A DNA stretch of 64,000 nt from Octopus sinensis. Taxonomy: Eukaryota. Where the stretch lies: NCBI RefSeq assembly GCF_006345805.1, contig NC_043015.1:24738001-24802000 (forward strand), in the 5' to 3' direction. A model generated the notes under the pieces. That model was not told the origin of the DNA. It saw nothing but the letters and a program-made list of their open reading frames with translations, and searched no databases. Within the stretch, counting starts at the first letter, position 1. Every line of letters begins with the position of its first letter. Of this stretch, positions 11,275 through 59,554 are shown piece after piece. Made by a program: the position numbers and the translations under genes.

Positions 11275-11309
<35 letters not shown>

Positions 11310-11407
11310 ACGGGAAGCTTTATGAAAATAAACAAAAGACAAAGGCAGGTGGAAAACAAACGAACAATTGTATTAGTATGGCGCTCAGGAAATATAAATA
11401 AAACAAG

Positions 11408-11445
11408 TCTTTAACGTTTCGAGCCTACGCTCTTCAACAGAAAGA
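11408..11445 (-). ncRNA. Minimal type I hammerhead-like motif in 3' pLTR (CUGUUGA variant core)
   Basis: Minus strand reads ucuuu-CUGUUGA-a-gagc-guag-gcuc-GAAA-cg-UU-aaaga. Stem I ucuuu/aaaga, stem II gagc/gcuc, palindromic AACGUU stem III. Confidence 0.7.
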
Positions 11446-12289
11446 TACAGAGAGAGAGAAAAACACAGAAAGAAGGAGAGAAAAAAATGCGTGCAGTAGC
11501 TAACGAATCAACATGGCGATCTGATTTCGGCCAGAGGTCAAAGATCAAACATGAGACGCGAGAGCGAAATAAGGGGAGATAATAGGTTGATAAAGGGTTG
11601 AGGGACCAGCTAAAAGTGCGTGGGAGGGGTCTGGATGTGTGTATGTATAGGGTTGGTGTATGTATTAGTATGTATAAGGGTGGTGTGTGTGTGTGTGTGT
11701 GTGTATGAGAGAGTATTAGTGCGTAAGATTGGTCTGGACGTGCGTATGTATGGGGTTGGTGTATGTATTAGTATGTATTAGTATGTATTAGTACGTATTG
11801 GTATGTATAGGTATGTGTGTGTGTGTAGAGAGAGTATAAGTGCGTATGCGGGGTCTGGACGTGTGTATGTATAGGGTTGGTGTAAGTATTAGTATGTACT
11901 AGTATGTATTAGTACGTATTAGTATGTATTAGTTGGTGTGCGTATTAGTATGGCACATCATATGTGATGTGATGTGTAAAGTCATGTGGTGTAGTGAGGA
12001 GAAGAGGGGAAGGGGGAGAAGAGGGGGGAGAGAAGGGGGGAAAGAAAGGGGGGAGAGAAGGGGAGGGGAAGAAGAGGGAAGGAGAAGGGGAAAGGAGAGG
12101 GATGGGGGAGAAGGAAGGGGAGGAGGGGGATAAAGGAGGAAAGAGGGAGTGAGGGAGCAGAGGGAAGGGGAAGAGGGAGGGAGAAAGAGGGAAGAAGGGA
12201 AGGGGAGTAGGGGTGAAAGGATGAAGGACTGAAGAAGTAGGCGTCGGGGGGAGAAAGGATAGGTGAGGAGGGGGGAGAGGGGGTTAGAT

Positions 12290-15141
12290 GAGGAGGGGGG
12301 AGAGTTGAGACCAAATGGCGTATAAGAGCGAAGAGAGAATTAATTCCTGTTCACGGCGCAAACGGGAATCCGGATGGCCTCTGTGTAAGGACAAACCGAA
12401 CACAGATAGGTGTTGCAAGGAGTGACCGGTGGAGCGGAAATGGCGTGAGACCGGTGTGTCGTTCGCAAGGTGGATGTCACGAAGGTGTTCCGCGAACCGG
12501 TCAGCCAAGCGGCGTCCCGTTTGTCCGATGTACAAGGAATTGCAGAGAGAGCAAGAGATGCAATAGATAATATTGCTGGAGGTGCAGGTGAAGGAGTGGA
12601 TGATGGGATAGGGTCGATGGTGGGTGCTAGTGAGGCGGGTGGTGTTGGAGAGGTAAGGGCAAGTGCGGCAACGTGGGCGGGAGCAGGGGAACGAGCCGGG
12701 TTGGGAGGTAGGGTCAGGGAAGGAGCTATGGACCAAAAGGTCTCGAAGGTTGTGGGCTCGTTTGAAAGAGGGGAGGGGTCGGTTAGGGAAGAGGTGTGAA
12801 GTGGACGGTTGGACTGGAGATGACGGAAAGCTCGAAGAATGGTGCGTTGGAGACGTAGGGTCGTGGGGTGGTAAGTGAGGGAAAAGGGAGGCGGGAGACT
12901 ACAGGGCGGGTTCGGGGAGAGAGAGCAGATACACGGTCCACGGACCGTGCTCTGGCAAGGGCGGTGTGGATATGGTGAGGGGGTATCCACGTAGGGTGAA
13001 GTGGTGAGCCATACGTTGAGACTGAGTCTCAAAGTCATGGTCGTCACTACAGAGCCTACGTAGACGGAGGAATTGGGAATAGGGGATGGAAAGCTTGGTG
13101 TGTTCTGGGTGGGAGGAAGAGAAGTTGAGGTATGAGTGTGAGTCTGTGTGTTTGTAGTGAATGGAGGTGGTAAGAGTGGAGTGAAGAATGCTAACCGAAA
13201 TGTCGAGGAAGGAGACAGAGGTGTTGGAGATAGTGGAAGTGAAGTGGAGGGCTGGATGGAAAGATTGGACGAAGAGAGGAAGGAATCTAGATGTTCGCGG
13301 GAGAGTGAGGTGGCACCGATAATGTCGTCAATATAACGACCATATAGTTCAGGAGTGGGACCAGTGAAATTAGAGAATATTTGGGCCTCAACATAGCCAC
13401 GAACAGGTTCGCATAGTTGGGGCCCATTCGCGTTCCCATGGCCACTCCCGAGATCTGATGGTAGAACTCGCCCGCGAACGAGAAGCAGTTCAGAGTAAGG
13501 ACAAGTTCGGCCAGACGAATGAGTGTGGAGGTGTCAGGTACAGGGTTAGAGCGGAGGTCAAGAAAGTGTCGAAGGGCCTGCAGTCCTTCGTGGTGAGGGA
13601 TAACAGTATAGAGGCTTTGGATGTCCATAGTAAAAAGGGTTTTGGAGGAGCCGGGAGGAAAGGAGAAAGAGTTGAAAAGCCGGAGAGCATGGTTGGTATC
13701 GTGGATGTGAGGGAAAGATGCCACTAGGGGGGCAAGGACACGGTCGAGGTATTTAGAGATGAGCTCCGTGGGGCAGTTACAGGCGAGACGATGGGGCGGC
13801 CAGGGTTGTTGGGTTTGTGGATTTTGGGGAGGAAGTAAATGGTGGGGGTACGTGGGGTTCGCACAATTAGGTTGGATGCGGTGCGGGGGAGACGGGAGGA
13901 CAGATGAGGTCTTGGACGGTAGAGGATACCGTCTGTTGGTAGCTACGTGTGGGGTTAGAGGGCAGAGGGGAATAGAAGGAGGTGTCATTGAGTTGGCGGA
14001 AAGCCTCGGCCCTATAGAGGTCCGCGCGCCACACCACTACAGCTCCACCTTGTCAGCCGGTTTGATGATAATGTCAGCGCGCCGTTGGAGGGAACGAAGA
14101 GCCAAGAGCTCAGCCGGGGAGATGTTGAGGCGGCGTTGGCGCCTGGAGAAGTTGAACCACTCCAATGCACGCTGACAAGCGCCCGCGAAAAGATCCACTG
14201 CTAGGATCTGGCCAGGGGCAGGCGTCCACGGGGATGGTCGGCGGCCCAGGCCAGTGAAGCAGTCGTCCTCTTCGTGGGGTGTGGGTGGCGAGTCGTGGTA
14301 ATGCGCACCCAACCGGACACGGCGCACAAAGCTGTGGACATCAACTCGCGTCTGGAATTCCTTACAGGACGGAGCGTTCAGCCGCAGAGAGGGGAAGATC
14401 GGGGGGAATGGTAACAACAGACGGAAGTGGAGAAGGGGTGGGTGGAATAGAAGTAGGAGGGGTGGTAGGTCTCGTGGAGGTCTGAGGGGGAAGGATTGGG
14501 GAGGTGTGTGGGGGGTGGTTGGGCGGGGCAGTAGGGTTAGGTGTAGGTGGATGGAGCCTAACGGGAGGGGAGAAGGGGTTGTAGGGAGGGGCAGTGGGGT
14601 TAGGTGTGGGTGGATGGAGCCTATCGGGAGGGGAGAAGGGTGGTGGAGGAGTTGGGGTAGTGGCGTCGGGTAGGGTGGAATGGAAGAGTGATTGGAGTTT
14701 ACGAAGTTTGGTATCAGAAAGAAATTGATGGAAGAGTTGATTCAAATGGATAATGAAGCGTAGCGTGTTTGGAGCATAGAGAGGCGGCAGAGAGGAGAAG
14801 AAGGTGGAGAAAGCAGGAGGAAGAAGGCGTTTGATGGCATGTAGTTTGGAGAGATTGGAGCGAATGGTGGCCCGCATAAGGCGGTAAGATGTGGTGCGGA
14901 GTATGGGTAAGATGGAAGAATCCGAGTGGAGAACAGGGTGGAAGTGGAGGCGGAAACCTTTAGGGATGAGTCGGTGATGTAGGCAGCGGCTTAGGAAAGA
15001 GACATGGCTAGAGAAGCGGGTTTTTTTAAAAAGAAGTAGAGAGAGATTAACGGACGGCTGAAGGCAATATACAGGAAGCGAACGTAGATGATCCTTCAAA
15101 CGGTGATGGAGGGTGAGGAGGTAGGACCTAGGATCCGGCAT
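12290..15141 (-). pseudogene. PLE polyprotein (N-terminal domain, RT, Cys linker, GIY-YIG endonuclease), frameshifted as assembled
   Basis: ATG at 15141 (MPDPRSY). Motifs HVSFLSRCLHHRLIPKGF, IIKPADK, LFTMDIQSLYTVIP, GVAMGTRMGPNYANLF, RYIDDI (13321-13338), PCSRPRCRTCP, NIIYCISC..C..LYIGQTGRRLADRFAEH and PFGLN. Split over several frames. Confidence 0.92.
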
Positions 15142-15859
15142 GATGGGATAGCGGAAAAAAAACGTTCGAAAAAACAAAAAAAAACAAAAAACAAAAATTA
15201 TCGTATGAAAAAAATAGAAAAAAAGGATAGCGAAAAAAGGGGAAAAAACAAAAAAATAATAATCGTATGAAAAAACTAGATAAGTAAGCGATAGGGGCAG
15301 AAAAGACGGGGCAAACGGAAAAGGGAAAGAAAGAAGGGAAGCAGAGAGAGGGGGAGGCAAAAAAAGGGGGGTGCAGGCAGAGGAAACGGAGTATGGACAT
15401 CCAGAGAGGGAAGAAAGACGGAAAGGAGAACAAAAATTCAGGAAAATGTGGGAAGCATGAAATGAATGTAAAAAAAGTGGTAATATAAGAGAAAATAAAA
15501 ATACAACAAACGGGACAGTTTATGCGAACAAGTTCAAGGTTGAAAGTTCAAGGTTGAAAGTTCAAGGTGAGAAATGTGTAGACGTCGTGGTATATTTTTT
15601 AAGGATTTCACATCAATGCAAAGTCACTTTGATCCGCGAAAGAGAGGTGCAGCCAATGGTAAGTATCCAAGAGGTAAAGAAAATCCAAGGTAGAGGTAAG
15701 TGTTGATAGTGGTATTGGTAGAATATAGGATGAAAGTGAGACCACGTGAGCGCATAATATATAACGGGAAGCTTTATGAAAATAAACAAAAGACGAAGGC
15801 AGGTGGAAAACAAACGAACAATTGTATTAGTATGGCGCTCAGGAAATATAATAAAAAAG

Positions 15860-15897
15860 TCTTTAACGTTTCGAGCCTACGCTCTTCAACAGAAAGA
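15860..15897 (-). ncRNA. Minimal type I hammerhead-like motif in 5' pLTR
   Basis: Identical in sequence to 11408-11445. Confidence 0.7.
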
Positions 15898-15920
15898 TAC
15901 ACAGAGAGAGAAAAACACAG

Positions 15921-21680: not shown

Positions 21681-24600
21681 CATCATCATCATCTTCATCA
21701 TCATCATCGTTTAACATGCATTCTCCATGCTAGCATGGGTTGGACGGTTCAACCGGGGATCTGGGAAGCCAGAAGGCTGCACCAGGCTCCAGTCTGATTT
21801 GGCAGTGTTTCTACAGTTGGATGCCCTTCTTAATGCCAACCACTCTGTGAGTGTAGTGGGTGCTTTTTACGTACCACTGGCACAGGTACCAGGCGAGGCT
21901 GGCAACGGCCACGATCGGATTGGTGCTTTTTACGTGCCACTGGCACAGGTGTCAGGCGAGGCTGGCAATGGCCATGATCGGATTGGTGTTTTTTACGTGC
22001 CACTGGCATGGAAGCCAGTCAAGGCGGTGCTGGCATCAGCCACATTCGGATGGTGCTTTTTACGTGCCACCAGCACAGGGATCACAACTGCAGTTTCCAT
22101 TGATTTTTGATGTTGGTGTACTTGACTCATTGGATCTCCTCAAGCACAGGGTCGAAATGGTGTTTCTTTACTTGCCACCTGCACAGGAGTCAGTCCAGTG
22201 GCCCTGGCAACTGCCGGGTGCCAGTCATAGGATTGGTTCCATTTCGATTCTGATTTCACTTGCCCCAACAGGTCTTCGCAAGCAGAGTTTAGTGTCCAGT
22301 GAAGGGAGGTTGGCATGGTGCCTGTCGTCGGATGAGGTTCGATTTCGACTTCGCTTGCCTCAACAGGTCTTCGTGTGTCCAAGGGAGGAAAGGCATGCCT
22401 AAGTGGGCTGGCTGGGATGGACTCACTTGTCCTGCTGGGTCTTCTCACGGACAGCATATTTCCAAAGGTCTCGGTCGCTGGTCATTGCCTCAGTGAGGCC
22501 TAATGTTCGAAGGTCATACTTCACCACCTCGTCCCAGGTTTTCCTGGGTTTACCTCTTCCATGGGTTCCCTCAACTGCTAGGGATTGGCACTTTTTCACA
22601 CACCTATTTTCATCCATTCTCACCACATGACCATACCAGTGCAATCGTCTCTCTTGCACACCACAGCTGATGCTTCTTAGGTCCAACTTTTCTCTCAAGG
22701 TACTTACACTCTGTCGAGTATGTACACTGACATTACACATCCATCGGAGCATACTGGCTTCATTCCTTGCAAGCTTACGCATGTCCTCAGCAGTCACGGC
22801 CCAAGTTTCACTGCCATGTAGCATGGCTGTTCGTACACATGCATCATACAGTCTGCCTTTTACTCTGAGCAAGAGGCCTTTTGTCACCAGCAGAGGTAAG
22901 AGCTCCCTGAACTTTGCCCAAGCTATTCTTACTCTAGCAGTTACACTTTCAGCACACCCACCCCCACTACTGACTTGGTCACCTAGGTAACGGAAGCTAT
23001 CAACTACTTCTAGTTTTTCTCCCTGGAAAGTGACAGAAGTTGGTCTCTGCACATTTTCAGTGTTTATTGCTCCCGAGCATCTGCCACATACAAAAACTAT
23101 CTTCCCAGTTAGCCTTCCTTTGACATTGCTACACCTCTTATGTGTCCATAACTTACACTGTGTACATCTTATAGAGTTTCTACCTACGCCTTTTCTACAG
23201 ATCGAGCAGGGCCATCTACCTGAAGGCGTTTGTGGTTTGTCTGCCTTCCTACTTAGTAGGACTTTGGTTTTAGCTAGGTTGACTCTAAGGCCCTTCGATT
23301 CTAATCCTTCCTTCCACACCTGAAACTTCTCCTCCAGTTCTGGTAGTGACTCAGCAATTAGAGCAAGGTCGTCAGCATATAGGAGCTCCCAGGGGCAACC
23401 TGTCTTGAATTCCTCCGTTATTGCCTGCAGGACTATGATAAATAGGAAGGGGCTGAGGACTGAACCCCGGTAGACCCCAAACTCTACCTTGAATTTTTCA
23501 GTGTACACATTGCCAACCCTTACCTTACTTACAGCGTCCCTGTACATGGCTTGCACAGCTCTCACCAGCCATTCATCTATCCCTAGTTTCCTCATTGACC
23601 ACCAGATAGGGGATCGGGAGACCCTGTCAAAGGCTTTCTCCATGTCAATGAAAGCCACGTATAGGGGCTTATCTTTGGCCAGGTATTTCTCCTGCAGCTG
23701 TCTCACCAGAAATATGGCATCAGTGGTGCTTTTCATTGGCATGAAACCAAACTGCATCTCATCCAAATTGACTGTCTCCCTAATCAGTTGGGCTATGACC
23801 CTCTCCGTAGCCTTCATTACCTGATCCAACAGCTTGATACCTCTGTAATTATTTGTATCTAGGGTGTCACCTTTAACTTTGTAGCAGTTGACTATTATGC
23901 TGCTACACCAGTCATTGGGTATGATTCCTTCATGTATCACCTGGTTAACTATACGGGTGACTAGGCTATAGCCGACACTACCAGATATTTTGAGCATCTC
24001 TGCAGTAATTCCTGATGGGCCTGGGGCTTTCCCTGAATTCATGCTTCTAATTGCCTTAACTACCATAGAACTGTCAACTCGGATAGCTGGTCCCTCTGTT
24101 GGGTTGACATTAGGCAGACTCTCTTTATCACATTTATTTTCTTTATTCAGCAACCTTTCATAGTGGTGTCTCCAAAACTCTCTCTTTGCATCCTCATTTA
24201 GCGCAAGCGAACCATCATCCATGCGAACATATTTCTCTCCTACCACATCACGATTCTCTCTCACACACTGTCTTGCAACACAAAATACCTCAAGTCTTTG
24301 GTCCTCATGGTGCAGAACATTGGCAAATTTTTTCTTATCTGCTTCCCCTCTGGCTAAATAAACCTGTCTCCTAGCTTCCCTTCTGGCAGTCTGATACAGT
24401 TCCCTGCTACCTCCGTTCTTCCAGTCCTTCTAAGCCTGTTTCTTTTGTCTAATAGCCTTGTCAACCACATTGTTCCACCACCACGTTACCTTGGGTCGAG
24501 TGGGGACTTTGCACCAGCCTGAGATCTGGTCAGTGGCTCTTAGCAGGTTGTCCCGTAGAAACCTCCAGTTGTCTTCCACATTATGTGATGCTATACACCC

Positions 24601-25060
24601 TTCTATTTCATCAAAGGCTTCGAGTAATACGTTTCTAAATCTCTGTCCATTTGCAGGATCTTTAAGTTTCCAGACCCTTCTCCTCCAGGCTGGACTTCTT
24701 CTGGGCATCCATTCAGCCCTGATCCTGAAGTCGCTAACTACTAATCTATGTTGAGGGTTACATTCTTCACCTGGGAAGGTTTTGGCATTTATAAGCAGCC
24801 CTCTTTCCCTTTTTCTGGTGAGGATATAGTCAATTTGGCTAGTGTGTCTGCCAGAATGATAGGTGACTAGGTGGCGGGTGGGTTTCCTGAAGTTGGTATT
24901 GCAAACCATAAGATCATTTGCATCGCAGAACTCCAGCAGTCTGGTTCCCTCCTCATTGCGGGAACCAAAACCATAGCCTCCATGTATGCCATGGAAGCGC
25001 CCTGCACATTGTCCAACATGTCCATTGAAATCACCAACCACAAAAAGAAGGTCTCTGTCA
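21681..25060 (-). mobile_element. RTE-clade LINE, 5'-truncated within the AP endonuclease, with 3' UTR and (GAT)n tail
   Basis: APE motifs VGDFNGHVG, RNEEG..LLEFC, SQIDYIL, HRLVV. One in-frame TAG at 24430-24432. RT ORF follows. Tail (cat)n at 21681-21707. Confidence 0.96.
22423..24429 (-). CDS. RTE reverse transcriptase with embedded PHD finger (open after the premature stop)
   Basis: KAPGPSG, NYRGIKLL, QFGF, FIDMEKAFD, GSVLSP, LLYADDL. C4HC3 motif at 23077-23208. FRYLG, LHGSETW, WYGHVVRM, RGKPRKTW. Confidence 0.93.
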   Translation of the reverse strand, partial: KDWKNGGSRELYQTARREARRQVYLARGEADKKKFANVLHHEDQRLEVFCVARQCVRENRDVVGEKYVRMDDGSLALNEDAKREFWRHHYERLLNKENKCDKESLPNVNPTEGPAIRVDSSMVVKAIRSMNSGKAPGPSGITAEMLKISGSVGYSLVTRIVNQVIHEGIIPNDWCSSIIVNCYKVKGDTLDTNNYRGIKLLDQVMKATERVIAQLIRETVNLDEMQFGFMPMKSTTDAIFLVRQLQEKYLAKDKPLYVAFIDMEKAFDRVSRSPIWWSMRKLGIDEWLVRAVQAMYRDAVSKVRVGNVYTEKFKVEFGVYRGSVLSPFLFIIVLQAITEEFKTGCPWELLYADDLALIAESLPELEEKFQVWKEGLESKGLRVNLAKTKVLLSRKADKPQTPSGRWPCSICRKGVGRNSIRCTQCKLWTHKRCSNVKGRLTGKIVFVCGRCSGAINTENVQRPTSVTFQGEKLEVVDSFRYLGDQVSSGGGCAESVTARVRIAWAKFRELLPLLVTKGLLLRVKGRLYDACVRTAMLHGSETWAVTAEDMRKLARNEASMLRWMCNVSVHTRQSVSTLREKLDLRSISCGVQERRLHWYGHVVRMDENRCVKKCQSLAVEGTHGRGKPRKTWDEVVKYDLRTLGLTEAMTSDRDLWKYAVREKTQQDK

Positions 25061-25592
25061 GATAATTCTCTCCTTAGAATGTGAGCTGTACCCAATAATG
25101 CTGTCTTCTGTACCACCTCGAGCCTGACAGCAGCTCCAATATTCTTAATGTTTTTTAAAGCCCTTGGAAACTGCTCCTAATGCTCCAATTACCACCGGTA
25201 TCACTATTACTTTCTTCATGTCCCATAACTTTCCCATCTTGTCCTGCAGTGGCTGGTATTTCTCATCCTTTTCTGTTTCCTCACATTTCACCCATCAAGC
25301 GTCTGGTATTGCAAAATCTATTATCTTTACTTCTTTTTCATCTTTATGGTTGAGCACGATATCTGGTCGTCTCACCTCTATGACTTTGTGGCACTGCATG
25401 TTAAAATCCCAGAGTATATTGTAATGTTTGTTTTCCATTACTCCCTCTGACTTCTGTTCATACCATTGTTCGGCTCCCTCTTGAGGTTTGCTTTACTGCA
25501 CAACAACCAGTGGACATATCTGGCTACATTGTCGTGTCTCCTTTAATATTTGCATTGTGCAAGCTTACAGCACTCACTAACAATATGACATA
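25061..25592 (-). mobile_element. R4/Dong-type RLE fragment
   Basis: HIVSECCKLAQCKY*RRHDNVARYVHW, ILWDFN, RRPDIV, IIDFAIP, VIPVVIGALG, VQKTALLGTAHILRR. 5' end beside (AAT)n. Confidence 0.88.
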
Positions 25593-26221: not shown

Positions 26222-27792
26222 TATGTTTGACTTTTGCTTTATATTTGTACAAGTTGGCTCCAAGTCTCACCCAGAGACCTCAAGAGACAACAGGGTTGGA
26301 AGTTCATGTTGTTGTTATGCCTAGTGTGCCATATATTTGGGGGGTGGGGATGTTGTACTAATGAATGTCTAAAAAAAAAAAAGTTTTTTTTTTTTTTCTT
26401 TTTTTTTTAAACCGAAAATTATGGTTGTTTTAAACCTTGAGGTTACATAGAGAGTATTTTGCGTAGGATATGAGCAGTTCCCATGAGCACTATCTTTTGA
26501 ACTTCTGCCATTTTTGGGTTTCCTGGTATCTGAGTTAGGTAGCTATCAGCCCCTTTTGCTATCATTCCCAGGGCACCTATGACAACAGGTATTGTTTTAG
26601 TCTTCAGCTTCCACATTTTGCTGATTTCTATTTCAAGATCTTTATATTTGCTCAGTTTTTGGTAGGTCCTGACAGATACGTTTATATCGATTGGGACAGT
26701 CATATCAATGAGGAGGCATGTTCTTTGTTTGAAGTCTTTCAATATGATGTCTGGACTATTTGCATCTATCTTCCTGTCAGTTTCAATGGTGAAGTTCCAG
26801 AGGAGTGAGATGTGGTCATTTTCAAGCACTGGGGGTGGTTTGTGTTCCCACCAGTTTTTTTCATGGGGCAAATCCAGGTTTTTACAGATTACCCAGTGAA
26901 TATATTGTGCAGCTCTATCGTGCCTGTTGAGATACTCTGTAGGCGCTAGAAGACTGCACTTGGAGACCACATGGTCAATGGTTTCATTTTGTTGCTTGCA
27001 TACATGACACGTTGGACTGCTTCTGATCTTTAATATGTTGGCCTGGTAGTTTCTTGTTGGTAGGCATTGATCTTGAGCTGCTATGATAAACTCCTCTGTT
27101 TCAGATTTTAAGCCAGAGGCCATTAGCCATTGATGGGTCAGGGCTTTGTCGATATCTGCATTATTCGCTCTCTTTGGGTATTTGCCATAGAGAGGTTTTT
27201 CTTGCCATTTATTATTCAGAATATCTAAGGCCGCAGTTTTGGCACGGGTTTTCATGTGCCTAGCTTTTTCTGTGCTTGTTTCTTGTATGTCTATCTCTAA
27301 TTCCGAAATTGGTTGTATTCGGAATTCACTTAGATATTCCTTTGCCTGTTTTGTGACTGAGTATGATGCTTTCTTGTTTTCATGTTTTGAGACAAGTTTT
27401 AACATCCAGTCCTCAGAGTTTTTCAGGTAGGTGTCTAGGCCAATTGTAGCAATCTTCATTGTTATTGCCAGTTGCAAAAGACCACGGCCTCCCTCTTTTC
27501 TTGGCAGATAGAGTCATTCTGTATCTGCCTTAGGGTGGTGCATTCTATGCATTGTCAACAGTTTCCTTATTTTTCTGTCGAGCTGACATATTTCAGTAAT
27601 TGACCAGTTAACAATATTGAAACTGTAAGTCACGACTGGTATAGCTAATGCATTGATTGCTTCGATCCTGTTTCTTGCATTCAGCTCTGTCTTGAGTATT
27701 GCTCTCACTCTTCGATAGCATTCTCTCCTGATCCTTTCCTTCATCTCTGAATGCCTTATTCCGTTCCCTTCAATTACCCCTAGGTACTTGTA
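26222..27792 (-). mobile_element. R4/Dong-type non-LTR retrotransposon, 5'-truncated
   Basis: YKYLG, NARNRIEAINALAIPV, ORF 26443-27477 with CHVCKQQNETIDHVVSKC (CCHC), RHD, PDIILKD..LLIDMTVP..KLSKYKDL (PD-(D/E)xK). Both ends lie in (AAT)n. Confidence 0.94.
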
Positions 27793-39579: not shown

Positions 39580-39928
39580 CACAATTAGAAAGATATATTT
39601 TTCAATGCGTAAGCACCAATAGAACAGCATACATAGCATAAAATCCTTACAGAGCAGAAAAATGTGTCAGCAACCAACCATAAGAATCGAACTCACATCC
39701 CTTTGATTTTTAGTCAAGTGCTCTACCATTCTGCTAAACTTTTGCAGAAGAATGTGTCAGTAAAGCAGTTTATTGTAATGGTAGAGCACTTGACTGGAAA
39801 TCAAAGGGATGTGAGTTTGATTCTCATGGTTGGTCACCGGCAGGTCTTTCTTGCTTTGTAAGGATTTTATCCTATGTATGCTGTTCTATCAGTATTTACA
39901 CGCTGAAAAATATATCTTTCTAATTGTG
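39580..39928. repeat. ~350-bp fold-back element made of two divergent tRNA-like cassettes
   Basis: Arms 39580-39740 and 39767-39928 are reverse complements. Each inner end is tRNA-like (taatggtagagc, ttga-7-nt loop-tcaa, gagttcgattc). Confidence 0.85.
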
Positions 39929-49000: not shown

Positions 49001-49111
49001 TTTGTCTTTCTCTTTTTTGTTTCTGAATTATTTTTACAATGAAAAGCCATATAAATATCAATATTTTACTCAATAATCAATACTTCGATTTATTGTTTTT
49101 TTTTTGTTTTT

Positions 49112-49830
49112 TTAGCAGATCAGAAATATCAAATATTTAGTGAGAAGTAAAGGAATATGGTAAACTGAGACAATTCATGGTAAGAAGAGTATATATTCTT
49201 CTCAATCAATTTGGTAAAGGAATGAGTATCTTCACGAGATTTATCCTAGTAGGGAGTATATTCCACTGAGCCATCTGTTGAGCATATTCAACTCAATAAT
49301 TAATACATTTATTACTTTCCATCATGACCCTGGAGAGCTAACACTCAAAATTGTCCGTTAAGGCATTTGAACTCTGATGTGCAGCATAGTAATATGTACA
49401 GACCAAAGATATCCGGCTGCTGCCTCACTGAATCAATAATCAATACATTGATTTTTTGGGGTTTCTTTTAGCAAAACATAAATATTAAATATTTATAGAA
49501 AAGAGAAGTAATATGGTAAACTGAGAGAATCTGGGATAAGAAGAGTTTATAATCCACTCAATCAATTTGCTAAGGGAATGCACATCTTCAACAAAATTAT
49601 TTTGGTAAAGGAGGGAAGGGGTGAATCCCGCTGAAACAAAATGGAGGCAAGGCTGGGGGTAATAAAATGAAACAACTCAATACATAATCTCTGTGTTTAT
49701 TTCTTTACTTTCTGACTTCATTGTTCCTGGAGGGCTAATAGTCAAAATTGATCCTTAAGTTGTTTGAACTCTGAACTGCAACAATCTGATCGATCTGGAC
49801 CAAAGAATCCAGCTTCTGATTGGTTGTTTT
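49112..49830. repeat. Ancient tandem pair of ~360-420-bp units
   Basis: Shared blocks 'aatatggtaaactgaga', 'taagaagagt', 'ctcaatcaatttg', 'cctggag.gctaa', 'tttgaactctga' and 'gaccaaaga' in 49112-49440 and 49468-49830. Confidence 0.7.
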
Positions 49831-50234
49831 GATGATAAAGTTTCTGTCAAAAATGTAGTTGTGGAAATTTATTGCCTAAAATGAATACTTGCCTGGATGT
49901 GTCACACTATACACTCACAAACACATTTACACAGACAGGTACCCACATATATAGAATGAGAAATGTAAAGAGGAAGAGAATGAGAAAGAAGGGAGAGAGA
50001 ATGGCATGTGTTTGTATGTTTATTTACCTATATGTGTTTATAAGTTTATGTATGTGAACACACATTCATATAGTGTGTTATTCTACAATATATAGACAGA
50101 CATATATGCATTTGTGTGTGTGCTTGTGTGTATGTGTGTGTATATACATTTATAAATATATATATATATACATATATACGTGAGTATATATATATACATA
50201 TGTATATATATATATATATTTATTTTATAGAAGG

Positions 50235-50285
50235 AGCTTCTACAGGACTAGTACTGTTTAATTCAAATGAAATCATCAGGAAGCT
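50235..50285 (-). ncRNA. Type I hammerhead ribozyme, core-mutated (UAAA for GAAA)
   Basis: agcuuc-CUGAUGA-uuucauuugaau-UAAA-cag-uacuaguc-cug-UA-gaagcu. Confidence 0.6.
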
Positions 50286-51160
50286 GGCTGTCAAAATAAA
50301 GGTTTCGTATTCATACATTTAGGCAGATTTAATGGGGTGATGGTGGGGGACGTTTTTTTGGGTAAGCAGGGCACATACTGTCGTCTATGGGAGTGGTCAA
50401 CATAATCAGAATAAATAAATAAATAAATGAGTAAATAAATAGAATAATTGAATAGAGTTTTAGGTAAATTAGAAGACTATTGCTTTTAGTCAGTTGTGGT
50501 TGTTGTTATTAAGTTGAGGGAAGAAATAGATAAATGAAAAAACATATAAATTAAATATACACACAAACCCTCATACATACACATGCGAATATCCATATAT
50601 ATACATATGCCCATGTATATACATACAGGCACACACTTACTTACATACACATAAATACACAAGCACATATATATACATATATAAATATATATATATCTAC
50701 ACAAATACATATATACATACATACATATATATATATTTATTTGTATGTAGGTGTACATGTATGTGTGTGTATTTATATTTATTGGTGTATATGTATAGAC
50801 TAGCCTTCTAAGAGTGTAGACATGAATCTGTAGGTACGCGTACGTATGGGTATATACGTGAATGTATGTAGATGTATGTATGTATGAATATAACGCGTGC
50901 GTGCGTGTATGCGTATGAGTGTACGAATGAGTGAGTGTACGTGCTAAGAGTTGTGCGTGAGTGAATGAGAAGGTTTTCCAGTAGCCGGATAAAATGGTCT
51001 GGCTGTCATAGCCAAGATGTTTGTGACCAAGTGGCCAAAGATAACAAAGATAAACGAAGATAATAAAATTAAAATTAGGGAATGGGTCTGTATTTGTATA
51101 TGTATATATATATGTGTGTATGTGTAGGTATGCATGGGTACACATATGTATATATATGTG

Positions 51161-51193
<33 letters not shown>

Positions 51194-51838
51194 TATATAT
51201 GTATATGTATGTGTATGTATGTATATATATGTGTATGTATGTGTATGTGTGGTGTATATATATGTGTGTATGTGTATATATGTGTATATCGGGACTAGTG
51301 TGCTGTGTGTGCATGTGTGTGTATGGATTTGGGTGTGTATGCGTGTATGTGAGTATGGTGTGTGTATGTGTATATATATATTTTTCTGTGTGTATATGTA
51401 TGTGTGGTCGGGGTGTATATATACTGTGTGTATACGTGTATGCAAGTGAGTGTGTGTATGTATACAATATATGTGTATGTGTAGATATGTATATGTATGT
51501 GTGAGTGTATATATGGGGATGTGTAGAGGTATAAGTGAGAATCTCCTTATTTACCTAAAACTCTATTCCCCCTTTATATATATATATTATATATATATAT
51601 ATATTTTTATTTTTATTTTTATTTTTATTTTTTTATATTTTTATTTTTAATTTTTTATTTTTATTTTTTATTTTTTATTTTTTATTTTTTATTTTTTATT
51701 TATTCTCCTATCTAATTTAACACTGACTCTTGACCACTCCCCCAAGTATGATTTTTTGCACTATGCCTACCCCCAAGTCCCCCACCAACACCCCTTTAAA
51801 TGCCTAAATGTATAAATGCCAATACAATCTTGTTAACT

Positions 51839-51889
51839 AGCTTCCTGAAGATTTCTCTTGAATGAAACAGTTCTAGTCCTGTAGAAGCT
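51839..51889 (+). ncRNA. Type I hammerhead ribozyme
   Basis: agcuuc-CUGAAGA-uuuc-ucuu-gaau-GAAA-cag-uucuaguc-cug-UA-gaagcu. Differences from the 56650 copy fall only at N7 and in the stem II/III loop regions. Confidence 0.72.
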
Positions 51890-51905
51890 CCTTCTAATAA
51901 TAAAA

Positions 51906-51940
<35 letters not shown>

Positions 51941-52610
51941 TATATATATAGATATACACATATATATATACACATATATACACATACATCCAAATACTCA
52001 TCACTTAAACACGCAAAACGCACGCACTATATATATATACACATATATATACCCATGTATGCATATACACATATAATAGTTTATCTCCTAATCTTCCACC
52101 CTTATTTATTTTTTATTTTTATTTCCTTTCTCTATTTGTCTAATCCCCCTACTCCAAACACATGAGACACACACACACACACACACACCTACACACACAC
52201 ACACCTACACACACACACACAAGAAACCCACACGTACACACAGAGACGCACAAACAGACCTCCACAGTACAATCATACAAGTAGCTGAAGTTTTAGCTGA
52301 CATCTTCAAATATAAGATGTATAATTTATGACCTGCCTACCAATGACCCACATTCAGTGACGCTAGATTAGACAAAATCCAAAAAGTTCCTAGAATTCCC
52401 CTTGGGGTTCCAGGGCCTGGCCAGAAGGGATTCTTCTTACTATCCCTCTACCCTTCCTTTCTATTCAGTACCCACGTATGGATACAAACGCATACACTCA
52501 CAACACACACACACTCCCGCGCACCTCATACAAACACATACACACAGGTTCTCGTCACTCATTTCCTCCTCATCTGCTTATAATATGCATATATCTCTCT
52601 CTACATGCAC

Positions 52611-52641
<31 letters not shown>

Positions 52642-53128
52642 AATACACACATGCATACATACATAAATGTACCCACGTTCACATAAACATATACATAACC
52701 ATGCATATATAAACATACATATATAAACGTACTTCTGTACACATAAACACATAGTATCTGCCCGCTTATATAAATGCATAGCACATATAAAACCATAGTG
52801 CATATAAATATACATACGCATATATACGCATCCATATGCATATAAATAACCATATGCACACATGCATGCATACCCTAGACGTAAAATGCATACATGCAGT
52901 TATACATACACACACACATATCATACTGACTACATACACATACACACGTACATACTGTACATATTGACACATATACACATACATATATACCCATACAAAT
53001 CTACGAGTCCAAATATATATACATATTATATCTACACACATAATATATACTTATATCCATATATGCCCATACAAAAATCTACAAGTCCATATATATAAAT
53101 ATACACATTATATACATATATAAAATAC

Positions 53129-53174
<46 letters not shown>

Positions 53175-53831
53175 TACATACACATATGTACTTACACACA
53201 TACACAAACATATACTCATACATTATAATATATTATATATACATATCACATATACATATATATATATATATATATATAATATTATATATATATATATATA
53301 TACACACATGTACATGTACATAATAAGCATAAACACACATAAATAAATATCTGCCTGCTTATAAAACGCATATGCACATATAAAACCATATGTGCATATA
53401 AACATACATACGCATATATACGCATCCATATGCATATAAACACATGTATGCACACATGCATGCATACTTGCATACATAAATGCATACATGCATATACATA
53501 CATACATATACATATATATATATACATATATATATATACATAAATACACATACGCATACATATAAATACATACAAGCATACACACACATACACAAACACA
53601 TATACATATATACATACATAAACTTATACATGTATATACTCATACTTACACATACACATACACACACACACATATATATATATATGCATAAATACACACA
53701 TGCGTACATATATATACATATACACCTACACATACATACATACACACACATATATACAAACATATGCACATATACACACATACATATACACACACATATA
53801 CATACACATATACATACATATACATATATAC

Positions 53832-53868
<37 letters not shown>

Positions 53869-54108
53869 CATACATATATATATACACATACAAAAACAAA
53901 AACATGCACACATGTACACATACACACGTATACACGCCTACACATACACATGTACATACACAAATGCACACACATACAACTACATATATACACTCTTATA
54001 CATACATGTGCACACATACACATGCCAACATCCATATAATATGTATATATATGTATATGCTTGTATACTTGTGTATGTGTATGGGTGTATGTATATATAT
54101 GCTATATA

Positions 54109-54152
<44 letters not shown>

Positions 54153-54434
54153 TGTATGTATATATGCGTATATATGTATGTGTGTGAATGTATGGACTTG
54201 TAGACCTTTATATGTATATATAGGTGTGTGTGTTTGCGTGTGTGTTTGCGTGTGTGTGTGAGTGTGTGTGTTTGTATGTGTGCAGATATGTGTATGTGTA
54301 TTTATATATGCATATGCTTATGTATGTATATGTATATGTATATATATATGTGTATATATATACATATATATTTGTGTATGGGTGTAAGTACATATGTGTA
54401 TGTATGTATGTGTGTATATATATGTGTATGTATA

Positions 54435-54506
<72 letters not shown>

Positions 54507-55057
54507 GTATATATATATATATGGACTTGTAGATTTTTGTATGGGTGCATGTGTATATGTGTATATATATGTGTGTATGTATATGTATATATATATGGAC
54601 TTGTAGATTTTTGTATGGGTTTGTGTATGTGTATGTGTGTAGATATGTATATGTATGTATGTGTACGTATATGTATGTAGGTGCATGTATGTATATGTGT
54701 GTATGTATGTATATGCATGTATGCATTTATGTATGCAAGTATGCATGCATGTGTGCATACATGTATTTATATGCATATGGATGCGTATATATGCGTATGT
54801 ATGTTTATATGCACATATGGTTTTATACGTGCATATGCGTTTATATAAGCAGGCAGATATTTATTTATGTGGTTTATGCTTATGTATGTACATGTATGTG
54901 TGTTGTATATATATATATATTATATATATATATATATTATATAATATATAGTATATGTATATGTATATATATGTATATGTATGAGTATATGTTTGTGTAT
55001 GTGTGTAAGTACATATGTGTATGTATATATGTGTATATGTATTATATATATATATAT

Positions 55058-55096
<39 letters not shown>

Positions 55097-56165
55097 ATAT
55101 ATATATATATAGATATATATGTGGACTCGTAGATTGTTTTTTGTATGGGTATATATGTATGTGTATATGTATAGATATGTACATGTATGTACGTGGACGT
55201 ATGTGTATGTATGTGCATGTATGAATATGTGTGTGTGTATGTATAGGCATGTATGCATTTACGTATATGGGTATGCATGCATGTGTGCATATGTGTATTT
55301 ATATGCATATGGATGCGTATATATGCATATGTATATTTATATGCACATATATTTTTATATGTGCATAATCGTTTATATAAGCGGGCAGATACTTATGTGT
55401 TTATGTGTACAGAAGTACGTTTATATATGTGTGTTTATATATGCATGGTTATGTATATGCTTATGTGAATATGGGTACATTTATGTATGTATGCATGTGT
55501 GTATTTGTGTATGTATATATATATATATATATAATATATATATATGTGCATGTAGAGAGAGATATATGCATATGTATAAGCAGATGAGGAGGAAATGTGT
55601 GAGAGAACATGTGTGTATGTGTATGTGTATGAGTGTGCGCGTGAGTGTGTGTGTGTGAGGTGTGTGCGTTTGTATCAGTGGGTACTGAGATAGAAAGGAA
55701 GGGAGAGGGGAGTAGTAGAAGAATCCCTTTTGGCCTGGCTGGAACCCCAAGGGGAATTCTAGGAACTTTTGGTGTTCCTGTAATGTGTGTCAGTGTGTAG
55801 GCAGGTCATAAATTATACCTCTTATGATTTTGAAGCTGGTCAGCTAAGAACTTCAGCTACTTGTATGACTGTACTGTGGAGGTATGTGTGTGCGTCTCTG
55901 TGTGTATGTGTGCGTTTCTTGTGTGTGTGTGTGTAGGTGTGTGTGTGTGTGTGTGTGGCTCTATGTGTTTGGAGTAGGGGGAGAGACAAATAGAGAAAAG
56001 GAAATAAAAATAAAAAATAAAATAAGGGTGGAAGATGAGGAGATAAAATATATATATATGTGTGTGTGCATATGTGGGTATATATATGTGTATATATATA
56101 TGTTCGTGTGTTTGCGTGTTTATGTGTATGAGTATTTGTATGTATGTGTATATATGTGTATATAG

Positions 56166-56219
<54 letters not shown>

Positions 56220-56649
56220 GTATGTATGTATATATGTATTTGTGTAGATATATATATATTTATATATATGTGCTTGTGTATTTATGTGTATGTAAGTAAG
56301 TATGTGCCTGTATGTATATACATGGGCATATGTATATATATGGATATTCGCATGTGTATGTATGAGGGTTTGTATGTATATTTATTTTATATGTTTTTTC
56401 ATTTATCTATTTCTTCCCTCAACTTAATAACAACAACCACAAACTGACTAAAAGCAATAGTCTTCTAATTTACCTAAAACTCTATTCAATTATTCTATTT
56501 ATTTACTCATTTATTTACTTTATCACTGATTATGTTGACCACTCCCATAAGAACGACAGTATGTACCCTGCTTACCCAAAAAACGTCCCCCACCACCACC
56601 CCATTAAATCTGCCTAAATGTATAAATACGAAACCTTATTTTGACAGCC

Positions 56650-56700
56650 AGCTTCCTGATGATTTCATTTGAATGAAACAGTACTAGTCCTGTAGAAGCT
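56650..56700 (+). ncRNA. Type I hammerhead ribozyme
   Basis: Stem I agcuuc/gaagcu, CUGAUGA 56656-56662, stem II uuc/gaa (U.U closing pair, non-canonical), GAAA 56675-56678, stem III acag/cugu. Predicted GUA cleavage after 56694. Confidence 0.78.
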
Positions 56701-56797
56701 CCTTCTATAAAATAAATTAATTTACTCTGCAATGTATTGAGTACCTTATTTACTGTGGTTAACCCCGACTCAACCCGGTACCTATATATATAATATA

Positions 56798-56840
<43 letters not shown>

Positions 56841-56899
56841 CACACACACACTCACATATATATATACATATGCATATATATATATGTATATATATATAT

Positions 56900-56931
<32 letters not shown>

Positions 56932-57607
56932 ATATATAATATATATATACTAAGCAATAAAGGGTTTAGCAACGAATTGCCTTACCACATACCGAATTTA
57001 GAAATAGCAGTCAAAGAGTTATAGCTATTTCTTCTACTAAAAAGGGAGATCTCAGTAAAAACAGCAATATATATATATATATTTATATATGCATACATAT
57101 ATATATGTATATATGTATATATACACATACATTTGTGTGTATGCATATGTTTTTATGGGTGTTTGTATTTCATGTTGAATTTTTATGTCAATGACTCACA
57201 AAATCTCTGATAATCAATATTTTGCTAAATTTTGTAATATTGTCGAAATATTCCTGGTAACTGGCAACCTCATGAAAACCCTCCTCCTCCTTCTCTCTGA
57301 TTCACTCAGTTACTAAGGTATTCTTATTATAACCCTCTCCTTTCTAACATAGAATATTTTGCCTTATATGAATTGCCCCATTTTGCTTGTCATTTTTTTT
57401 TCCTCTCTGAAATAATTTACCAAGTGCTGAAAAGGCTCATGTCTTAGTGTTTAGGCAACCGGTCTCTTAGAATGTCATGGGTTCAATTCTCATCCCAGGC
57501 AGTGCATTACATTTTACTTCATGTTGCACCTGTCCTCCCACCATGCCTTACAAATACGGGTGTTTAATTTGTTAAAGCACCTAATTAAAGTCACTCTGTG
57601 GCAGTAA

Positions 57608-57822
57608 TAATCTTTTCTACTCTAAACACAAGGCCCGGAATTTTGGGGGAGGGGACCAGTTGATTAGATCGACCCCAGGACACAACTGGTACTTGATTTA
57701 TCGACCCCAAAAGGATGAAAGGCAAAGTTGACCTCGGCAGAATTTGAACTCTGAACATAAAGACAGACAAAATACTGCTAATCATTTCACTTGGCATGAT
57801 AACATTTCTGCCAGCTCGCCAC
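57608..57822 (-). mobile_element. SINE family A, full length
   Basis: Reverse complement of 888-1096. Confidence 0.85.
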
Positions 57823-59554
57823 TTTTGTGTAGCAGAAATAATGAGTTAATGGTATAAACATAAACAAAACCCTAACCCTAACTATAAACAAAAAGGGAAA
57901 TATATCTAACAGTGGACTGCAATATTCTGTCTCTGCCCTATTCTATATTTCCTTAGTATTTTAATTATAAGATCTGATTTGGTATGAAATTTGACTGGTA
58001 TTTCTGGCAGGTTGCACAACTATGTTGAGGCTTTATTAGTGTTGTAAGTTATGAAATTCTGTGAAAATATTGATAGAGCACCAGTTATATTTGATACCAT
58101 TTTGATTGGTTCCTTTTTATATTCATTTTGTTTTTATTTCATGACAGTACTAATTTTTTTCATTCCAAAAAACTACTTTATAAAAATCTTAATTTCTGAA
58201 TCATTTTAATAAATTTTTCAAATAGATGTATACAGATAGAGATTTAATTAATTAAATTTATATATTAAATGAAAATAAAAATAAAAAATGAAAACTATAG
58301 AAAGTAATATGATAATGGACCTACAAGAGAAATAAAATAGAATAAAACATGAAACCCAAAAAAAATCATACGTAAACACAATGGCCAAAACTAACAACAA
58401 AAAAAGAAAGAACCCCAAAAAATTATTGTTACAAGATCAATGAAATAAGATAAACTTTATTTCACTTTGAAATTTTCTGGTTTAAATTGAAAAAGAATAA
58501 CAAAAATAATAATTAGAATGTAAGTGAAGGGAAAAAAATTAATAATAATAATATGAATGTGAACATTGTATTTATCTGTTATTGATTATTGTATTATTAT
58601 TCTTTCATCTCCTCCCCTCGAGAATATGAAGTGGAACCGATGGCTGTCTGTAGCAGCAAATTGAACATCTATTGGAATAATTAATATTCTAATGATTAAA
58701 CATTTTTATTATATATTTTTGCCACTTTTACCATTAGTAGCAGCAAGAATGACAATAAGTGGGTGGGATGGAGGGGAACAGAAGAATATGAAAACAAAGG
58801 TGGAACTGGAAGCAATCATTAGCTACAACTATGGTCATTTTTCAAAGCAATAATTAGCTCCAGTTTCTGTAGAATGATGCAAACATTTTCTGATAATGTT
58901 GAAGAATTGCTTGTGACTATCAAACAGATTTGTTTTGAAATTCAGTTTAATGATGCCTTCAAAATAAACCAGCCATCATATTGATACTTAACACAAATCT
59001 TCTATCTTACATGGAATAGTTCTCTTCTCTTGTTTCATCATTAGAAATTCTCTGCTTTTTTTTCACTTTCCTTACAACTCTTCTGGTATGTGTGATTGTC
59101 TATTGTAAAACAGCAGATGTTTTTGTTTGTGTTTTTGTTTAGCTAAGATTATTAGCCGTGCTTTAATTCAGTGTCATTGTTTTGTCGACATTGAGATAAC
59201 TCGCCAAGGCAAACACATGAACACACAAAAGAAACAAAACAAGCAAAACTAAATCATAACCCATTTTAAATCTATCTCAACATGTTTTCTGTTGTTTTAG
59301 TCTTTTGGCCATTTCATTAAAGGACCTCTTGCCAAGATATCACTGTCTCAGCACCTAACAGATCATCCAATAATTTTTTAATCCATTAATTCCTCAAAGT
59401 ATGTTCCACGAACAAAGACAAAAATAAAAAAAAACAATAATGGAAAAACTGGAATTCCATAATATAAAATGTTTTTTCATAAAATCAGAGATTTATTTCA
59501 AATACTAAATGCTTTTTCAGCATTTTTAAAACAATGGATTTGTTTTATATGGGC

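Follow-up and report, generated by a model that had tools for sequence, protein, structure and literature searches.

Hydra-clade Penelope-like elements (PLEs), as described by Craig et al. 2021 (PMC8557442) for families including Hydra-1_Obim, Penelope-1_SK and Penelope-13_HM, possess one open reading frame (ORF) of about 725 amino acids for a reverse transcriptase (RT) with a C-terminal GIY-YIG endonuclease (EN), the motifs DKT, CxCX5C, CxxC and CxH, (TA)n targets and a sense type I hammerhead ribozyme near the 3' end (layout ctgatgat...tgaa-acag...ctgt-a). A 5'-truncated inverted copy is on record for Penelope-13_HM. Members of the clade are generally short (<3 kb, given as a tendency and not as a diagnostic character; the 27 families listed measure 1,080-3,045 bp), and the origin of inverted PLE arms with a one-sided tail and the purpose of the hammerhead are named there as open questions. 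Here we describe a 6.5-kb fold-back element from Octopus sinensis, located in a 64,000-nucleotide stretch of contig NC_043015.1 (G000:C19:24,738,001-24,802,000; hereafter the window) and compared with the 2.72 Gb assembly. It is best explained as a whole (probability roughly 0.86) by truncated Hydra-clade PLE copies lying back to back, likely from one two-priming event, with a copy of a sister subfamily probably nested later.

In PAc, the Poseidon element of Anolis (Frangieh et al. 2024, PMC11167929), and in Penelope of D. virilis two discrete 3' ends past the hammerhead cut define a tail of 30-40 nt inside the ORF start, targets are AT-rich and copies read through the hammerhead. The PLE protein is reported to cut and extend both target strands, with internal starts at two tail-bounding sites of uncleaved RNA (PMC11167929); the tail, the inverted copy and two RT start sites are described in that paper and in PMC8557442. 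Pen1 of Adineta vaga (PMC3846280) has palindromes at inverted junctions and a kilobase-scale non-coding stretch between the ORF and the 3' pseudo-long terminal repeat (pLTR), consisting of 0.9-1.5 kb of captured host DNA that is unrelated between copies. Non-LTR retrozymes (Li et al. 2026, bioRxiv 10.64898/2026.07.22.740005) carry a type I hammerhead related to that of PLE pLTRs and occur as ORF-less copies in tandem arrays with units of 51-972 bp.

The octopus family shares the Hydra-clade features listed above, including the 5'-truncated inverted copy, and differs in its unit of 5.5-6.2 kb, in a 3' untranslated region (UTR) with a median of 3.2 kb and 25-65% alternating pyrimidine-purine runs, in RWR at the place of RWK and in an 8-nt hammerhead loop III as compared with 1-3 nt. 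It is not Hydra-1_Obim, whose hammerhead and protein are different, and a motif search of the PMC8557442 supplement found none of its motifs. With PAc and D. virilis Penelope it has the two 3' ends, the AT-rich targets and the read-through in common; unlike them it belongs to the Hydra clade and has a tail of 67 nt within the 5'UTR. From the non-LTR retrozymes, which it resembles in hammerhead and ORF-less copies, it is set apart in that its copies derive from a coding element by 5' truncation to variable lengths and mostly stand as inverted pairs. The long spacer and the palindromic junctions recall Pen1, but here the spacer is an inherited degenerate microsatellite diverging by sub-lineage. 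The insertion is of an ordinary PLE kind, from an unusual long-UTR Hydra family; unusual are the roughly half-repeat 3'UTR, which doubles the unit relative to the listed Hydra families, and the joining of 21 of 36 sampled pairs inside the hammerhead.

Architecture and coding relatives of the fold-back

Self-comparison of the window aligns 50218-50782 inversely with 56162-56717 (93% over 568 columns), so that the outward-facing inverted termini in (TA)n noted in the preliminary description are present; it further yields a loose self-inverse at 51906-56223 (81% identity, 484 gap columns) and an additional terminus at 51695-51904 (78% identical). The inner 4.3-kb palindrome claimed there stands only in part. 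Homology links about 51906-53510 to 54400-56223, whereas the supposed centre near 54040 aligns through common TA/CA composition only: the right arm lacks the complex 13-mers of 53600-54048 (1/73 in bins 53600-53999), and 54049-54399 is nearly without match in the other arm (8/75). The strand switch is located at about 54048, where the G-C skew flips. Everything in 50218-56784 is 3'UTR, hammerhead or tail (Table 1), and, as had been stated, no credible ORF exists inside the fold-back, where a Pfam scan of the window ORFs matched no family.

Copies of the family stop at one of two sites, each followed by (TA)n: about 56717 (short end) or about 56784 (long end). The window has a short left and a long right end, and the true right boundary therefore lies 67 nt beyond the one placed earlier at 56716. 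Nor does the element end at its hammerhead, as had been thought; beyond the predicted cut (GUA^, after 56694) it extends 3' for about 23 nt at one end and about 90 nt at the other.

Table 1. Features of the fold-back insertion in the window.
Feature	Position	Strand	Basis
Left (TA)n target tract	50141..50217	.	sequence
Subfamily A left arm, outer: tail-less (short) 3' end and last ~0.5 kb of 3'UTR	50218..50736	-	93% to right arm; short-end class; right-arm match stops ~50736
Type I hammerhead, predicted inactive (U for G12 at 50260)	50235..50285	-	
Nested copy of sister subfamily B, truncated at the 5' end: final ~1.15 kb of B 3'UTR, short end	50737..51904	+	within internal (TA)n of left arm
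Type I hammerhead of subfamily B	51839..51889	+	
Subfamily A left arm, inner: degenerate TA/TG 3'UTR, to 72-79 nt after ORF stop codon	51906..54048	-	5/5 ORF-linked copies; 138 anchors colinear with L070
Subfamily A right arm: 2.7 kb 3'UTR, hammerhead, tailed (long) 3' end	54049..56784	+	end class, anchors, dispersed copies
Type I hammerhead, Hydra-clade layout	56650..56700	+	stem I AGCUUC/GAAGCU, CUGAUGA, short stem II, GAAA, stem III CAG/CUG
67-nt PLE tail; 5'UTR in full-length copies, ending ~45 nt before the ATG of the ORF	56718..56784	+	
Right (TA)n target tract	56785..56949	.	

Two sister subfamilies, A and B, have hammerhead and tail in common, and B has its own body. Anchors followed upstream in B lead to RT and GIY-YIG frames; the B EN piece gave 150 scored matches at 75-100%, several of them within A-type pairs. 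The same ORF has A-type termini downstream of it in 6 of 20 stretches and at C15:11.24M, C15:1.72M, C15:0.84M and C6:117.5M (contig and position in the assembly). The termini are thus attached to an RT/GIY-YIG ORF in longer copies, and the PLE biology seen in the fold-back by the preliminary description was right, its body being the 3'UTR of that ORF. A gap of 72-79 nt separates the end of the left arm from the stop codon, so that the window copy is protein-free only by truncation. Full-length copies are ordered as pLTR (hammerhead and tail), an RT and GIY-YIG ORF of about 2.2 kb, a 3'UTR of about 3 kb and pLTR; three of four candidates gave hammerhead-to-hammerhead units of 5,505, 5,837 and 6,208 bp. 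The pLTR is a partial tandem upstream of the ORF, where hammerhead and tail are found again and the tail leads on to the ATG.

Of 8,000 candidates that were scored, 1,422 are homologues of the protein at E <=1e-20; the top 120, nearly all unnamed, share 37-54% identity with it. PF01541 is found in the homologues. By eye, the Hydra motifs SDKT, CNCPDKTTC (CxCX5C), CDLC (CxxC) and CMH (CxH) are present and CCHH is not; the N-terminal RWK position reads RWR, and the homologues carry either. The ORFs of A and B are about 85-92% identical in protein. Motifs, hammerhead and (TA)n targets assign the family to the Hydra clade, and by its sequence the fold-back is almost certainly a set of two 5'-truncated copies of such an RT/GIY-YIG-coding element, back to back in (TA)n. 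A solved-structure search using the protein alignment gave no hits, and a sequencing-run listing for words of the locus returned 24 runs, none with half of the words and no RNA run among them.

Paired ends across the genome and routes to inverted arms

A search with the right terminus gave 1,659 candidates in the genome, and the 40 scored yielded 43 matches at 90-100%; the internal anchor gave 128 candidates and 41 matches. Termini and internal anchors are linked in order at many dispersed loci. A 26-nt core has 6,487 exact occurrences in the genome (control 0), corresponding to at least 6,487 termini.

The pairing of ends was examined in two samples. The first consists of 116 merged segments with 51 adjacent outward pairs, 50 of which combine a long with a short end; the sole exception is the A-short/B-short neighbourhood of the window. 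In the second, the first 100 genome hits of the 26-nt core, which were not chosen by similarity, 72 hits form 36 outward pairs (35 long+short, 1 long+long). Of the 28 single hits 24 were fetched, and they divide into 12 with a diverged partner and 12 solo copies, five of the latter with a short end. Spans between paired cores range continuously from 12 to 5,965 bp. Of 41 resolvable pairs, 24 have the tailed arm as the longer one and 17 the tail-less arm; without three duplicate loci the latter number is 14. No mixed A/B pair occurs among 43 classified long+short pairs. This and the nearest-relative counts of partner arms given below are compatible with an origin of both arms from one source locus, without being decisive. 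Thousands of natural products are available in this genome; they keep strictly to the long+short rule, vary independently in the lengths of their arms and pile up their junctions in the hammerhead, all of which can be counted and put to the test with the assay already established for PAc.

By analogy to the described systems, such pairs probably arise by two priming events at one target. The GIY-YIG domain would cut both strands of (TA)n. [quoted passage not shown] PAc in vitro); the two cDNAs would stop independently and be joined at short self-complementary words, in the window presumably the TA run at 54048. Among 2,844 exact long ends 2,665 (94%) read through the cut site, and no truncation pile-up was seen there.

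Several observations weigh against the explanation as a whole. One of the 36 sampled pairs is long+long, and just 10 of the 16 A arms and 4 of the 26 B arms have their partner as mutual nearest relative, although most of B is too uniform for this to be told. The arms in the window differ by a block of about 650 bp and a 15-bp indel, which bears on whether one or two RNA templates were used, and the tail is longer than the 30-40 bp of the literature. No unbroken ATG-to-stop ORF was seen in a single copy, the longest open frames spanning 652-688 aa in an assembly that carries indel errors. Pfam RVT_1 is matched only at E 0.045, and the EN piece has no Pfam match.

The best-surviving alternative, though an improbable one, keeps the same element and lets the first cDNA fold back at a palindrome and prime its own second arm, as proposed in PMC3846280. 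Junctions do often lie in palindromes such as AAGCTT, and the frequent sharing of private variants by the two arms, like the lack of A/B mixtures, would be expected. However, where the tail-less arm is the longer one the 67-nt tail of the other arm cannot be supplied by folding back, so that a simple cDNA fold-back cannot give these pairs; in the window, moreover, each arm holds sequence missing from the other.

The preliminary description favoured a non-autonomous, non-coding, retrozyme-like element of fixed 6.5-kb palindromic form, moved in trans by PLE proteins. The type I hammerheads, the lack of an ORF in the window and in most genomic copies, and the report of animal retrozymes as derivatives of PLE pLTRs (bioRxiv 2026.07.22.740005) speak for it, and some ORF-less source copies could still move in trans. 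The continuous core spans leave no fixed unit, head-to-tail monomer arrays are absent, and the termini together with the body are the 3'UTR of ORF-bearing copies, colinear and ending just short of the stop codon; with a family that has its own coding capacity, this proposal is very doubtful.

An equally poor prospect is a long-read fold-back or misassembly as the source of the inverted arms, a caveat raised from the small indels of the left interior. These indels are real: against three outside copies the left interior has 28-31 gap events as compared with 9-17 in the right arm, and the B terminus in the window has 4 gaps in 195 nt where seven other B copies equal L087 exactly. The excess at 50780-52600 is probably consensus error; the private variants shared by the arms likewise speak for an artefact. 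The structure itself is another matter. The left arm has a 15-bp segment and the first ~540 bp of the UTR, both missing from the right arm and present in other copies, and the right arm has the tail and about 650 bp missing from the left; neither arm is therefore a copy of the other. The flanks of the insertion are unique and the long+short asymmetry recurs genome-wide, which disfavours an artefact for the structure.

Back-to-back truncated copies with a later insertion also account for the third hammerhead, whose type I layout at 51839-51889 was correctly noted. It belongs to a separate nested copy of subfamily B: 51695-51905 is 96% identical to 40 dispersed B termini, and the copy shares up to 240 colinear anchors with B UTRs that are linked to an ORF. 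Similarity between the left A arm and the right arm is interrupted at about 50736 and picks up again at 51906, both times in one TA tract (56149-56223 of the right arm), so that B likely inserted after the A arms, into the TA tract of the left one. Comparable nesting occurs at C15:11.23M, C2299 and C2:153.97M, and the five short-ended solos among the 24 singles examined resemble the nested B copy. Two adjacent insertions instead (A-short with B-short, and the inverted A body with A-long) are hardly credible. The first two termini do face outward like a pair, yet no other of the 51 pairs is short+short or mixes A with B, and the interruption of the left arm begins and ends in one internal TA tract. 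In the B UTR of L086, L087, L093, L096, L098 and L109 (the equivalent of window 50705-50892) a tandem duplication of about 190 bp is found, and the truncation of the B copy in the window falls on the boundary of this duplication.

At G000:C17:59.00M, 59.22M and 59.31M lie three inverted pairs, nearly identical and with a common junction, which are probably a segmental duplication. At L277:4800-7980 (G000:C1:11.61M) a long B arm is followed by a periodic array (~440 bp) of short inverted element fragments.

A microsatellite-like 3'UTR

The distance from stop codon to hammerhead is 551-4,767 bp with a median of 3,228 (17 of 19 rows, some with nested insertions; one excluded row spanned two elements and the other is an upstream partial copy). 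About half of the 3'UTR is degenerate TA/TG repeat: 25-65% of its bases lie in alternating pyrimidine-purine runs of >=12, compared with 4% in the rest of the window. The right arm and the UTR of the ORF-linked copy L070 have 345 unique anchors, 303 of them colinear and none on the opposite strand, which bears out the suggestion that the microsatellite-like body is cargo of the element. A and B UTRs have few common anchors despite related ORFs; the repeat body thus turns over fast and yet is inherited within each sub-lineage. The element likely spreads its simple-repeat-like non-coding end on moving.

Other transposons carry microsatellites. Neither this family nor a Hydra PLE with a multi-kilobase microsatellite-like UTR is described in the literature searched (Repbase, Dfam and subscription papers lay outside the search). 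PLE-borne microsatellites do not appear in the accessible part of PMC3124438 (shrimp), and for Octopus vulgaris PMC13282606 gives, in the part available, a count of 31 Penelope-like families that were recently active, with no description of them. Kilobase simple-repeat-like stretches and MITE-like (miniature inverted-repeat transposable element) palindromes of about 200 bp are here pieces of one coding PLE family, which totals about 4-7 Mb or 0.2% of the assembly (a rough extrapolation from 36 pairs with a mean of ~1.2 kb) and is a real but small source of simple repeats in this genome.

A second Hydra family of the same genome has UTRs of 984-1,068 bp with 10-11% such runs (9 of 12 stretches). 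It is young (L211-L220 and L222, e.g. G000:C2:88,212,001+), with open ORFs of 721-728 aa, a 3.35-kb unit, a 1-kb 3'UTR and its own smaller hammerhead, and also makes inverted pairs.

Hammerheads, hammerhead junctions and neighbouring features

Type I hammerhead layouts at both termini had been described, and both are found. The core (CUGANGA/GAAA/NUH with three stems) is intact in the right and B copies; the G12 to U change in the left copy would break it. The right copy has an 8-nt stem III loop and a layout equal to that of the Hydra hammerheads in File S2 of PMC8557442. Its minimum-energy fold is a three-way junction, no stabler than shuffles (z 0.11), and an Rfam scan called no hammerhead at gathering score. 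In 182 ungapped full-length sites out of 227 found in the fetched loci (some loci being duplicates, and the 3' half biased by exact-pattern fetching), alleles above 8% occur only at N7, at three positions of loop II and at one of loop III; no compensatory pairs were found in the stems.

The cores lie <=55 nt apart in 21 of the 36 pairs of the second sample and in none between 56 and 238. In none of those 21 does an arm extend past the 5' edge of stem I, which is 26 nt upstream of GAAAC (arm extension in such tiny pairs is crude, and two arms scored 0 through indels), and 12 of them have an overlap of 1-7 nt at the junction. The fold of the hammerhead may thus be a frequent stopping place for RT, or its palindromic words may favour joining. 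More speculatively, the family may be self-seeding: with (TA)n targeting and about 3 kb of TA-rich 3'UTR of its own, each insertion would plant new targets and joining words, and the hammerhead would be the main stop-and-join point for two cDNAs primed at the same time, a role for which the PLE hammerhead would not have to cleave. In L231-L266 (C1, first 38 Mb), the stretches of the sampled pairs, the 21 appear as palindromes of about 200 bp joined inside the hammerhead, MITE-like to annotators.

Diverged direct repeats with a spacing of 356-397 bp lie at 49070-49806, just left of the insertion. On the reverse strand of the window, a frameshifted Neptune-type PLE at 11300-15920 has RT motifs, a CxxC linker, GIY-YIG (E 8.4e-4) and a direct terminal repeat at each end; pieces of its family also occur within the A-family UTR at C15:11.25M and in L177. 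This Neptune-type element was rejected as a partner of the fold-back on account of its different pLTR, as were four PLE fragments near fetched loci, whose 3' ends are unrelated. Also on the reverse strand are remnants of long interspersed elements at 22423-25176 (endonuclease, RVT_1 at E 7e-30 and a PHD-like finger) and 26443-27513 (zf-RVT fragment). A repeat at 57605-57826, resembling a short interspersed element, has at least seven other copies in the window, and a tRNA-like match is located at 39680-39736.

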